From assembly GCA_951406725.2 (NCBI GenBank), contig OX597815.1, forward strand, positions 169,942,001 to 170,006,000: 64,000 bases of DNA. Direction: 5' to 3'. The notes under the pieces were generated by a model. It made no database searches, was not told the origin of the DNA, and saw nothing but the letters and a program-made list of their open reading frames with translations. Below, piece after piece: positions 10,528 to 63,592 of the stretch. The stretch is from Octopus vulgaris (lineage: Eukaryota). Numbering within the stretch: position 1 is the first letter of the stretch; the number at the start of each line of letters is the position of its first letter. The translations under genes were made by a program, and so were the position numbers.

Positions 10528-10566
<39 letters not shown>

Positions 10567-10584
10567 ATATATATATATATATAT

Positions 10585-10640
<56 letters not shown>

Positions 10641-10646
<6 letters not shown>

Positions 10647-10844
10647 TATATAGAAGGAGCTTCTACAGGACTAGAACTGTTTCATTCAATAGAAATCTTC
10701 AGGAAGCAGGAGCTTCCTGAAGATTTCTATTGAATGAAACAGTTCTAGTCCTGTAGAAGCTCCTTCTATATAATAAATTAATTTTACTCTGCTATGTATT
10801 GAGTACCTTATTTACTGTGGTTAACCCCGAATCAACCCGGGACC

Positions 10845-10848
<4 letters not shown>
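10641..10848. mobile_element. Fold-back mini-element (PLE/retrozyme-like) in (TA)n
   Basis: Perfect 67-bp inverted arms at 10641-10707 and 10712-10778, 4-nt spacer, ~70-bp unique tail, (TA)n on both sides. Confidence 0.85.
10708..10764 (+). ncRNA. Type I hammerhead ribozyme
   Basis: Stem I AGGAGCTTC/GAAGCTCCT (9 bp), CTGAAGA 10717-10723, stem II TTC/GAA with a U-U at its base, GAAAC 10736-10740, stem III ACAG/CTGT, cleavage triplet GTA 10753-10755; mirror copy on the minus strand with a 5-bp stem I. Confidence 0.8.
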
Positions 10849-10876
<28 letters not shown>

Positions 10877-10907
10877 CGCGAGAATGAAGCAACAAGAATG
10901 GATAGGT

Positions 10908-10998
10908 TTTTAGTACAATCGTTTCATACAAGGACAGGTTTTATTAAAAGTTGCAAAAATTACAGCATATAAACGTGTCCCGTACTCATCAGCTAAAA
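10908..10998 (-). ncRNA. Type I hammerhead ribozyme (mirror of 12988-13078)
   Basis: Reverse complement of the plus-strand motif, within the left arm. Confidence 0.8.
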
Positions 10999-12515
10999 TA
11001 CATGTGAGTTCTCTAGACATCCTAGTGGTTGAGGCTATACTCATGAAGTAATGTAGATAATTAAGTAACATAAACAGATTTCAAAAGTTCATTAAAGTTC
11101 TTTAAAGATGATGTACAGTCTTATCACAGAATTTTAAAAAAGTCTTAATAGCATCACAGAGAAGGTGACCCAATCCATAGTGCACATATGAATTTCCAGA
11201 GATATGATGAGGGATTACATACTCACAGAAAGCAAATTTATCCATTGTTAATTACAACGAGGTGGGTTTCAATTCCTGCTTATTAGCATTACAGAGAGGG
11301 TGAATTAATCCTTTGTATAGATGCACAATTTCCAATGGTGTAGGTGTAAATTTCCAAGGAATTTCATATTCACAGGCGATAAATTTATCAATGGTTGAAC
11401 ACAATGAGGTAGGTATCAAATCTTGCTATATGATTAGGTATTTGCCACATTAATCACATTACTGCTATTTACAAGAGGCTGTAGCTATTTAACTTTTAAG
11501 GCTGAAGGGCTTACTAGAGCTGTATAGAATAGAAGAGGGAAGGGCATAGAAGAAAAGAGAGAAAATAAAAAAGAGAGAAAATAAAAGAGGAGGGAGCAAA
11601 AAGGGGGGGGGAGGGGGACTCAAAGAGAAGAGAAAAGGAAAAAGAGAATAAGAAGAAGAAAAAGAAAAAAGAGAAAAGAGAAAGAAATAGGGAAGGAAGG
11701 GAAAAAAAGAGAAAAAGAAGAAAAAAAGAAAAAACGAAAAAAGAAGAAAGAAGAAAGAAAAAGAAAAAAGGGTTCTAGTTATACAGAAGAATTAGTAGAC
11801 GACAAGTCTGGTTTTAGTTTACAGGCATCTAGGAATTAGAGGAGAATATTATTCTTTGACCAGTTAAAACAGCTAATTTATTGCTGTTGAAACCAGCTAT
11901 GAATTTAAAGAGAATCTAAAGAGATAACACAGTTAGGGGTTTCGGGGTCAGATGCTAAAATCACCAGAAAATACATTAGGGAAAACTAGGTATAATCTTA
12001 TCAAAAAGTCATTAAAATTTACTTATTTAATTTATTCATTTTATTGTCTTAAGGAGTTGCCGTTATTATTCATACATTGACGGACTACAGGTCAAATCTT
12101 AGAAGATCATTTAAAAGGTGTTAGGGGATTGTCTATCATAATGAAGATAATCATATTATCACCGAGGGAATAGTCTCATTTATTTAATTTTGAAGTAGAA
12201 TTATGGGTCTATAGTAACTCATTTTAATTAATTAGAGTTATGCTAATTAAATTAGATTAAGTTGGGAACTAAAATTAAAAATTACAATTAAGATTTAAAA
12301 TTAAGAATTTAAAAATTTAAAAATTGTGAGTTTGAAATTAAATAAAGCCTCAATTAAGCAGCGAATAAGTGCTATTCATTTCCCTGTTCTCAAAAACTGA
12401 TGCAGATATAGGAAAAAGATAACTGTAGTGTGAGAACTCTTAGTTATCTACTTAAAGCAGTGCTATACCAGTAGAAAACAGGTTATATCAATCTATCTAG
12501 TTACGAATATTCTAA

Positions 12516-12751
12516 TCATTTAAAATATTTTAAATTCTTCAATTTAGCGTGGACACAAACTTGACCTAGTTCGATATGGTTATTCAATAGGTTTCTATGT
12601 TTTCTATGCTTTAGAATTTCATATGTCTCCATGGAGCATAGTTGGCAACCAACCCTACTATTTTTATACGGAATTGCTCTCCTAACTATTTCCCAATTAA
12701 GGTTATAATTTTTATTATTATTTTTGAGTTCCCAGATTTTGTTTGAAAGTG
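12516..12751 (-). pseudogene. C-terminal part of a PLE GIY-YIG endonuclease
   Basis: STLSNKIWELK...NWEIV...Y.....CQLCSMETYEI...LLN...EL...CVH fits the PLE endonuclease C-terminus with CxxC...CxH; the ORF's first codons come from the inverted arm. Confidence 0.8.
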
Positions 12752-12987
12752 TGCTTTCTGTGAGTATGTAATCCCTCATCATATCTCTGGAAATTCATAT
12801 GTGCACTATGGATTGGGTCACCTTCTCTGTGATGCTATTAAGACTTTTTTAAAATTCTGTGATAAGACTGTACATCATCTTTAAAGAACTTTAATGAACT
12901 TTTGAAATCTGTTTATGTTACTTAATTATCTACATTACTTCATGAGTATAGCCTCAACCACTAGGATGTCTAGAGAACTCACATGTA

Positions 12988-13078
12988 TTTTAGCTGATGA
13001 GTACGGGACACGTTTATATGCTGTAATTTTTGCAACTTTTAATAAAACCTGTCCTTGTATGAAACGATTGTACTAAAA
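12988..13078 (+). ncRNA. Type I hammerhead ribozyme
   Basis: Stem I TTTTAG/CTAAAA, CTGATGA 12994-13000, stem II GTACGGGACA/TGTCCTTGTAT, GAAAC 13061-13065, minimal quasi-palindromic stem III ACGATTGT, cleavage triplet GTA 13070-13072. Confidence 0.85.
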
Positions 13079-13225
13079 ACCTATCCATTCTTGTTGCTTC
13101 ATTCTCGCTTATAATCCCCCCACATTACTGTATTGTTAAATCAGTATAGTTTTTTTTGGTGCATCTAAGTTAGGTACCATATTCAAGTAAATTCATTTAA
13201 ATTAACTTGAATCTTTATTGCTTTT

Positions 13226-43993: not shown

Positions 43994-44954
43994 CACAAAG
44001 AAGAAGAAGAAGATGATGAAGAAACAACAAAAGCTAAAAACAAATGAAATCCAAACTAAAAATAGAACAGCAACGAGCCATGATAAAACGATGGCAAGAA
44101 AAGCCCCTTCATGGTAAATACTGGACTAAACTAAACGCAAAAGAAATAGACAAAGAAAAATCCCAGCAATGGTTGAGAAGCTCAGGACTCAAAGCAGAAA
44201 CAGAGGGATTTTTAGTTGCAGCACAAGACCAAAGCCTCCCCACCAGAAATTACCAAAAACATGTAATGAAAAGAAATATTACAAGTAACTGCAGAATATG
44301 TGGAGATGGACAAGAAACAATAAATCATATTATCTCTAGCTGCCCAGTCCTGGCTAAGAAGGAATATATTCACAGACATGACAGAGTTGGAACCTACATA
44401 CATTGGAAGCTATGCCAACATTATGGAATAACAACAGAAAAAAGATGGTATAGGCACACACCAGAAAAGGTCACAGAAAACGAGAAAGCAACCATACTCT
44501 GGGATATGCCGATACACACAGATAGAGAAATTAAGGCCAACAGACCAGATATAGTTGTCAGAGATCATGAAGAAAAAAAATGCTTTCTAATTGATGTATC
44601 AATACCGGCTGATGACAACGTGTCTCTAAAAGAAATGGAGAAACTCTCAAAATACAAAGACCTGGAAATAGAGGTAACTAGAATGCGGAATCTGAAAACA
44701 GAAACAATTCCTATCATAGTAGGTGCATTAGGCATGATAAAAAAGTATTCAGACAAATACATAACAAAAACACCAGGACTTACAAACACATATAACATAG
44801 AGGAAATTGCACTACTAGGCACTGCACACATCTTACGCAGAACACTTTCCATACAATAACCATCAGAGCATCACAACAAATCACAGCACATACCCAAGGC
44901 ACATAGAGCTGCGCTCGGTAGTGAAGTGAAAGCACGCTATAAAAAATAAAACTA

Positions 44955-62357: not shown

Positions 62358-63592
62358 TCAGGTCATCCCATAAGATCTGTCCAATTTTACCTTTTCAAAA
62401 ATTGAATGAAATTTAATAGTATTTTAGAATGTCTAATGGAAGTATAAATTATTTTTATGCATTTGTGTACATTTAAACTAATTAAATATTATGTTACAGA
62501 ATAGTAAAATTAAAATTTCTTTGATTAAACCCTTTTTAACATGGTGATGCTTTATGAGTACAAAAAAGGAAACTCTGCAGCCGAAGCGACTCGAAACATG
62601 CACTCAATTTATCGGAAAGAATGCTTGAATGAAAGAACTTGCAGAAGACGGTTTTCAAAATTTATATGCGGAGATTTCAGCCCTGAAGATGGAACAGGAC
62701 GTCCAGTTGAATTTGATGGTAAGCTCCTTGAGGCATTACTTGAAAAAAATCCTGCATTATCAGCTGAAGAATTGGCAATAAAGCTTAGTTCAAACCATAC
62801 AACTGTTCATCGTCATCTTCAACAACTTGGAAAGTGGGTGTCTCGTGAATTGTCCGAAAGCAACCGCAAATCCCAAGTTGTCATCTGCTTTTCTCCCCAT
62901 TCTCGTGAACTCATTTCACCCTTTTTGGATAGACTTGTGACTGGTGACGAAAAATGGATCTTCTATCAAAATGTTAAACGTCGTAAATAGTGGCTTGGTA
63001 AAAGGGAAAAAGCTCAAGCACAACCGAGTAGGGAACTTCATAGAAAAATGTTTTTCTCTCTATCTGGTGGGATTGCAAAGGTGTAATTCACTTTGAATTG
63101 TTACCACCTAATGCAACAATCAATGCTCAAGTCTATTGCAGCAATTAGAGCGTTTGAACCAAGCTTTGAAGAAAAAAAGACCCGCTTTAGTGAATCGAAA
63201 AGGAGTGATGTTTCATCATGACAATGCACGAGCCCACACTGCAAAAATCACATCACAGAAGATCGAAGAGCTTGGTTGGGAAAAAATTCCTCTTCTACCT
63301 TATTCTCCCAATCTTGCTCCTTCAGACTATCCCTTGCTTCGTAGTTTACAGAATCATTTGGGGGACATAACTTTCGCAAACCAGGAAGAGGTCGAAACTG
63401 ACATTTCAGAGTTCTTTGCTTTGAAACCAAAAGAGTTTTACGTTGATGGGATTAAAAAGTTTGTAAAAAGATGGAAGGAAGTCATAGGTAATCAGGGAAA
63501 GTATATTGATGATTAAACGTCAATTAAATATAACATTTGATCACTTGGTTTTCTTTATTCAAAATTCGGACAGAACTTATGGGATGACCTGA
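62358..63592 (+). mobile_element. Near-full-length mariner element, inactive
   Basis: TIRs TCAGGTCATCCCATAAGATCTGTCC and GGACAGAACTTATGGGATGACCTGA; TA on the right, CA on the left. Confidence 0.95.
62541..63516 (+). pseudogene. Mariner DD34D transposase pseudogene
   Basis: VTGDEKW, HHDNARAH, YSPNLAPSDY; stop at 62988-62990 and frameshifts. Confidence 0.9.

Follow-up and report, generated by a model that had tools for sequence, protein, structure and literature searches.

The window analysed here is a 64-kb stretch of the Octopus vulgaris contig OX597815.1, and the locus of interest is a 208-bp element at positions 10641–10848, inserted in a (TA)n tract. Sequence analysis of the window confirmed the original prediction of a perfect 67-bp inverted repeat (10641–10707 against 10712–10778) with the spacer AGGA between its arms. 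Window position 10708 was numbered as element position 1, so that 10711 is position 4, 10778 is position 71, 10848 is position 141 and the predicted ribozyme cut falls after position 48. The 208 bp comprise element positions 4–141 and an inverted copy of positions 5–71, joined head to head (Table 1), and contain no ORF. The earlier description of the element as almost only two hammerheads was not borne out, since the ribozymes make up about half of its length and the 70-nt tail is a defining part of it. A second head-to-head element (10873–13113) shares the right (AT)n tract. Its 367-bp inverted arms match at 99 % and each carries a hammerhead-like motif whose stem II is long (plus strand, 12988–13078; minus strand, from 10998). 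At 12758–12519 it has a weak match to the endonuclease end of the parent element described below (tblastn E 1.3e-4), and it probably represents another Penelope-like element (PLE) family. Two further frames in the window, at 44038–44856 and 62529–63513, look like those of a protein from a non-LTR retrotransposon and of a transposase of the mariner kind, respectively.

Table 1. Features of the 208-bp element and its immediate flanks (window coordinates)
Feature	Position	Strand	Remarks
Left (TA)n target tract	10528..10640	.	Read from the sequence; 29/29 other best copies likewise end in (TA)n
Short inverted arm, element positions 71 to 5	10641..10707	-	Putative cDNA primed at the inner start zone
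Minus-strand hammerhead motif	10659..10707	-	5-bp stem I; predicted cut at 10664
Junction-made AGG	10708..10710	+	Without counterpart in parent copies; turns the 6-bp stem I into one of 9 bp
First native base of stem I	10711..10711	+	5′-end pile-up; putative transcription start
Native type I hammerhead motif	10711..10761	+	Predicted cut after 10755
Hammerhead parts	core 10717–10723; U·U 10724/10735; stem II 10725–10727/10732–10734; stem III 10739–10742/10751–10754	+	Palindromic loop on stem III
Local 8-bp hairpin	10752..10770	+	Predicted to mask the cut site and the stem I 3′ strand in an RNA that begins with the native base
AT-rich inner end zone (positions 65–75)	10772..10782	+	Short-arm ends; putative second RT start site
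70-nt tail	10779..10848	+	Normally on one arm only; ends at 141, the putative main RT start site
Right (AT)n target tract	10849..10872	.	Common to the neighbouring inverted-arm element

The original prediction treated the locus as a stand-alone element of two ribozymes. It is instead the front end of a coding element, and almost certainly a minimal insertion, lacking a promoter, that stems from a young Penelope-like retrotransposon of the Hydra clade. In long copies the RT and endonuclease frames lie on the same strand as the plus-strand hammerhead. Copy L169 has an uninterrupted 713-aa RT/GIY-YIG frame in a unit of 5,387 bp, which opens with positions 4–141 and continues through a leader to the ATG, 183 nt after position 4; full elements repeat the 4–141 stretch at the end of the unit. 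Where the tail of the 208-bp copy stops at position 141, with ATAT microhomology to the target, full elements run on into the 5′ leader and ATG. The single ORF combines RT and GIY-YIG domains, with MG..YRDD and YIGMT motifs, as in EN+ PLEs. The protein has 1,084 full-length relatives, of which the top match is annotated with PF01541 and many with PF26215; a Pfam search with the parent protein itself gave no match above the cut-off. The layout is also that of a PLE, with a tandem or partially tandem pLTR, an inverted 5′-truncated copy and a tail at one end only; tandem units were found in L175–L177 and a partial tandem in L169.

The 713-aa protein carries RWR (not RWK) at residue 38, DKT at 116, CxCx5C at 567, CxxC..E at 667 and NCMH at 694, together with a C-terminal GIY-YIG-like motif, and neither CX2-5CxxC nor GxKF/Y was found in it. 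The family also inserts in (TA)n and has a canonical hammerhead on the sense strand. The available text of Craig et al. 2021 (PMC8557442) gives (TA)n as the target of the Hydra clade and lists its diagnostic motifs, and on the strength of such motifs the parent would be placed in that clade. Its 3′ region (L032 3600–6300; L169) is about 3 kb long, rich in TA/CA microsatellites and internally duplicated, far longer than in described Hydra elements. About 30 long copies (L032, L157–L168) share an identical 225-aa frame that is severed from the RT frame, and this frameshifted subfamily seems to have spread in trans.

The plus-strand motif at 10708–10764 is a type I hammerhead with a 9-bp stem I, a 3-bp stem II and an 8-nt loop 3, and it presents the core CUGANGA/GAAA/NUH with all three stems. 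Its GUA triplet puts the predicted cut after 10755, in agreement with the original prediction, and the 4-bp stem III claimed there resolves into three Watson–Crick pairs plus the core A15.1–U16.1 pair. A descriptor scan of the 64-kb window returned two hammerhead motifs only, both in the 208-bp element, a count that is incomplete in that the neighbouring motifs with the long stem II were overlooked. Rfam gave no match at gathering score across the window and no hammerhead family among the 41 matches at E≤10 within 10600–10900; the miRNA matches were discarded as reflecting only the hairpin. A 30-mer from the motif had 3,548 exact matches in the genome against 0 for a reversed control, indicating that the motif is not a chance occurrence. 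In a sister subfamily with a CUGAUGA core (2,252 matches), the core and stems were preserved and changes were confined to N7 and loop 2. No compensatory pairs were seen in this comparison, so covariation lends the motif no support.

At the base of stem II the G10.1–C11.1 pair is replaced by U·U, which had been thought liable to inactivate the ribozyme. A hand count in File S2 of Craig et al. (PMC8557442), as far as that file was available, found U·U at this position in 14 of 25 Hydra-clade families, the commonest published state of the clade. According to Perreault et al., it is also the mismatch that is tolerated best, and natural hammerheads with U–U are on record. The U·U is the typical clade state and not a lesion.

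Folding predictions cast doubt on the monomer fold that had been suggested for the hammerhead of the 208-bp copy. For the 57-mer 10708–10764, the hammerhead fold (−15.1 kcal/mol) lies 2 kcal/mol above the minimum free energy (−17.1 kcal/mol). The pairing probability of stem III is 0.06 with the rare A10729 of this copy against 0.54 in a common C copy, and that of stem II is below 0.1 in both. The palindromic loop 3 permits a dimer (duplex −12.8 against −1.4 for the monomer hairpin), and for PLE hammerheads such a loop-3 option has been described, together with poor cutting in vitro, in the available literature. Since a PLE hammerhead was inactive without its own protein in the available account of PMC11167929, absence of cleavage of the 57-mer would count little as refutation. 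The local hairpin, predicted for all family copies, has a probability of 0.44 here, 0.73 in the common C copy and 0.0 once AGG is added. With an RNA starting at the native base it would compete with stem I, and the added AGG would remove this competition. In the family at large, the local hairpin could keep the mRNA uncut until the protein binds.

That the junction extends stem I and is predicted to release it from the local hairpin is what could be expected of a functional RNA switch, in which the full hairpin and the ribozyme fold alternate in a read-through transcript, as the original prediction proposed. For the whole element, however, the hairpin was computed at −126.9 kcal/mol against −48.6 kcal/mol with the ribozyme forced, a gap of 78 kcal/mol that leaves little room for competition. 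In a head-to-head pair the antisense arm is also transcribed ahead of the ribozyme in either direction, so a read-through RNA would be a long hairpin. The junction is moreover not conserved among copies and no host gene was identified around the element, and we regard a switch as very improbable. The hammerhead of the 208-bp copy appears to be inherited cargo, its cleavage being a prediction from the motif.

A search of the genome DNA gave 749 candidates, and nearly all of the 40 that were scored had an inverted partial copy on their 5′ side. Tail arms differed from the 208-bp copy by 1–5 bases in 48 of 51 ungapped comparisons, suggesting a young family. Both loop-3 subfamilies produce mini palindromes of this kind, with the A allele in 38 of the first 100 G-type arms (hand count). 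Three loci, each with a junction of its own, carry the rare A10729 on both of their arms, and a fourth carries it on a single arm. At L133 and L136, mini palindromes occur in pairs, with distances of 2.0 and 9.5 kb between partners that are oppositely oriented or face each other.

The outer ends of the arms were confined to two places. In a set of 125 distinct mini pairs, for which the search patterns used had enriched, one arm ended at 139–141 and the other at 64–75 in 123, and both arms had tails in two; long pairs combined a short and a tail end in 26 of 26 cases. Nearly all short arms of the minis (122/123) ended at positions 65–75, 77 of them at 71. Because ATAT follows 141 and positions 65–75 are AT-rich, both places can pair with (TA)n. 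Pol III termination was rejected as the cause of the short ends, as a sister subfamily with only three T has the same ends. Breaks at the predicted cut site were limited to 20 matches, eight of them point changes, and cut RNA was accordingly rejected as the usual template. In a single case (L138, the same as L112; C2 near 21636740), inverted 4–48 is joined to 49–141, exactly the two predicted cleavage products, and cut RNA may sometimes serve as template.

The relation between the two arms was also informative. Of 21 long copies, 8 had a short arm that extended beyond the tail arm on the 5′ side, seven of them by more than 600 nt; in 26 unbiased mini pairs the short arm reached further in 5, the tail arm in 8, and the two were equal in 13. 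Since it often reaches further 5′, the short arm is more than a plain copy of the cDNA in the tail arm. Discordance between arms was found in 4 of 369 comparisons at segregating sites, against 39 of 6,032 at other sites. This agreement indicates that both arms derive from one RNA or one source locus, and it rules out two RNAs drawn randomly from the family pool. Locus L209, first listed as mixed, has a left arm too short for the comparison.

At the inner junction, long copies have A(A/C)T ahead of position 4 in place of AGG, which gives a native stem I of 6 bp. The 9-bp stem I of the original prediction is thus present in the 208-bp copy but is a product of the junction. Likewise, the inversion point does lie at stem I as proposed, although only the final A of the AGGA spacer (10711) is native and the AGG (10708–10710) is missing from long parent copies. 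Of 3,070 arms genome-wide, 1,986 have retained the native T ahead of position 4; the other 1,084 have lost it, and 493 of these show G instead. In the same enriched sample of 125 mini pairs, 169 of 250 inner ends fell at position 4 and 42 at position 8. Zero-spacer palindromes with AGCT (positions 4–7) at their centre were found at 654 loci, in two subfamilies. In 70 of 71 matches, with 10 spacer sequences, TATAAA precedes position 4 by 29 nt, a spacing that is weak evidence because the copies are close kin and some loci are counted twice; the 208-bp copy does not carry this TATAAA. The pile-up of 5′ ends, the AGCT-centred palindromes and the TATAAA point to position 4 (10711) as the putative 5′ end of the RNA. 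The pile-up could alternatively stem from AGCT microhomology or from release of the RT at stem I. None of the public datasets found to contain the sequence is registered as RNA.

Both the 3′ strand of stem I and the beginning of the core are complementary to the AGG; if the cDNA end folded back briefly, the AGG and the longer stem I would both be explained. It is possible that its G derives from a cap, as in L1, and fold-back explains the added G equally. The AG that precedes the core was also considered as a splice acceptor and rejected as such, since the junctions have no fixed upstream exon. Among the 26 unbiased mini pairs there were 14 junction types, in both polarities. This variety, the production of minis by both subfamilies and the occurrence of A10729 with three junctions indicate a recurrent origin.

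An assembly or sequencing fold-back artefact is barely conceivable. No public contig bridges the junction of the 208-bp copy, which proves nothing, and contigs from four public runs join (TA)n at 10777–10782, as in the short arm. The arms are furthermore asymmetric, the flanks are distinct and varied junctions recur at hundreds of loci.

The same variability bears on whether the minis are a non-autonomous palindromic element, SINE- or MITE-like, of which one or a few palindromic masters are transcribed and copied whole. Their copy number is high, no long copy with A10729 was present among 6 exact matches, and the AGG and adjacent non-native bases are seen again at many junctions. Recopying of masters would not, however, be expected to give variable junctions in both polarities or minis in every subfamily; the minis also lack the TATA region, and a 64–67-bp hairpin is a poor template. 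We consider such an element distinctly improbable.

Self-priming offers a further explanation, in which the arm made first (or an antisense RNA) folds back at its 3′ end and then serves as template for the second arm. On an antisense template it is the published reading of PLE junction palindromes in the available text of PMC3846280. It would account for arms that are nearly always concordant and for the short fold-back-like additions at many junctions. The 654 zero-loop loci, in contrast, are hardly attainable by an intramolecular primer, the short arm is often further 5′ than the tail arm, and two pairs have both arms tailed. A variant in which the template arm was trimmed later is possible. 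We judge self-priming unlikely overall, though less so than the recopying of palindromic masters.

The reading we prefer, with a probability of roughly two in three, is that both ends of the target break prime cDNA synthesis on the front of the element RNA, that both cDNAs run to its 5′ end and that they are then joined by microhomology. The PLE enzyme would cut the (TA)n tract, and both DNA ends would prime reverse transcription on an RNA whose 5′ end is the first stem I base (10711), 29 nt downstream of the TATA box. One end would prime near position 141 and the other near 71, on the same RNA or on RNAs of one source. When the start sites at the front of the mRNA are used, cDNAs of 138 and 68 nt would stop at the 5′ end after both had read through the uncut hammerhead. 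The cDNA ends would anneal by microhomology, most often at the self-complementary AGCT, and a few bases, here AGG, would often be added first by a brief fold-back; fill-in would then fix the palindrome. The long two-armed copies would result if a tandem transcript were primed at its downstream copy of the start sites. As described in the available text of PMC11167929, both strands are cut and extended by a purified PLE protein, that of Poseidon, which uses uncut RNA as template and has two internal start sites on either side of the tail. Against priming from both ends, the arms overlap on positions 5–71, so two readings of a single RNA would be needed; the near-complete concordance of the arms fits such double reading or the copying of one arm off the other. 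A broader proposal, that the empty palindromes are a genome-scale record of both break ends primed at two fixed sites on the same uncut RNA and joined at its 5′ end, where the first four bases are self-complementary, is put forward tentatively, at less than even odds.

Inverted pLTRs, tails, PLE hammerheads and inverted 5′-truncated copies are already in print. Hydra-clade PLEs, as far as the available text of PMC8557442 describes them, share with the present family a C-terminal GIY-YIG domain, RW[K/R], DKT, the CxCx5C linker and CxxC/CxH, (TA)n targets, a canonical hammerhead often with U·U at stem II, and an inverted 5′-truncated copy with a tail on one end. The hammerhead found here nevertheless differs in sequence from the Hydra-1_oBim motif listed there. 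The unit is 5.4 kb with a microsatellite-rich 3′ region against less than 3 kb in Hydra elements, the tail is 70 nt against 30–40, and loop 3 is 8 nt against 1–3. That text does not mention mini palindromes for the Hydra clade.

In the Poseidon element PAc of Anolis (Frangieh et al. 2024, PMC11167929), the available account likewise describes two internal RT starts downstream of the hammerhead that bound the tail, extension of both strands, an AT-rich target and uncut RNA. PAc belongs to another clade and its ORF begins inside the hammerhead, compared with 183 nt past the start of stem I here; the head-to-head junction is not explained in that account. Penelope elements of Adineta vaga (Arkhipova et al. 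2013, PMC3846280) have, in the text available, a head-to-head inverted pLTR with a junction palindrome, an optional tail and a TATA-like box in the pLTR. Few copies underlie the antisense-template self-priming proposed there, whereas the hundreds of empty insertions found here favour priming from both ends.

Type I hammerheads with a palindromic loop 3 are likewise found in PLEs and non-LTR retrozymes, where dual opposite-strand motifs 100–700 bp apart are known (available portions of PMC4209133 and bioRxiv 10.64898/2026.07.22.740005). Retrozymes form head-to-tail tandems according to the same portions; the present locus has just one pair, arranged head to head and with the same sequence as the front of its coding parent, and is not a non-LTR retrozyme. 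Twin priming of L1, in the available text of PMC11702581, also involves a second target end that primes internally and microhomology at the junction, and full-length L1 5′ ends carry an extra G. L1 segments abut with little overlap, in contrast to the two arms here, which both copy one stretch of 67 nt and come together at the presumed RNA 5′ end. In the literature covered, with few subscription journals among it, we found no account of the family or of a class of empty palindromes ending at stem I, and only Craig et al. was relevant to octopus hammerheads.

Taken singly, the locus is ordinary transposon debris, and the palindrome probably arose as a side product of transposition and not as an RNA switch. 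Ribozyme features in such copies, for example the 9-bp stem I, can be artefacts of the junction. The origin of the inverted ends of PLEs is described as an open question in the available texts of PMC8557442 and PMC3846280. The family offers hundreds of very young and very short insertions in which the outer ends and the junction can be read to the base, and these favour priming from both target ends over self-priming. If the broader proposal holds, the antisense self-priming model would be replaced and the transcription start of a PLE would be mapped to stem I of its hammerhead. A third of insertions would then also be automatic hairpin genes, which could feed small RNAs directed against the 5′ end of the element.
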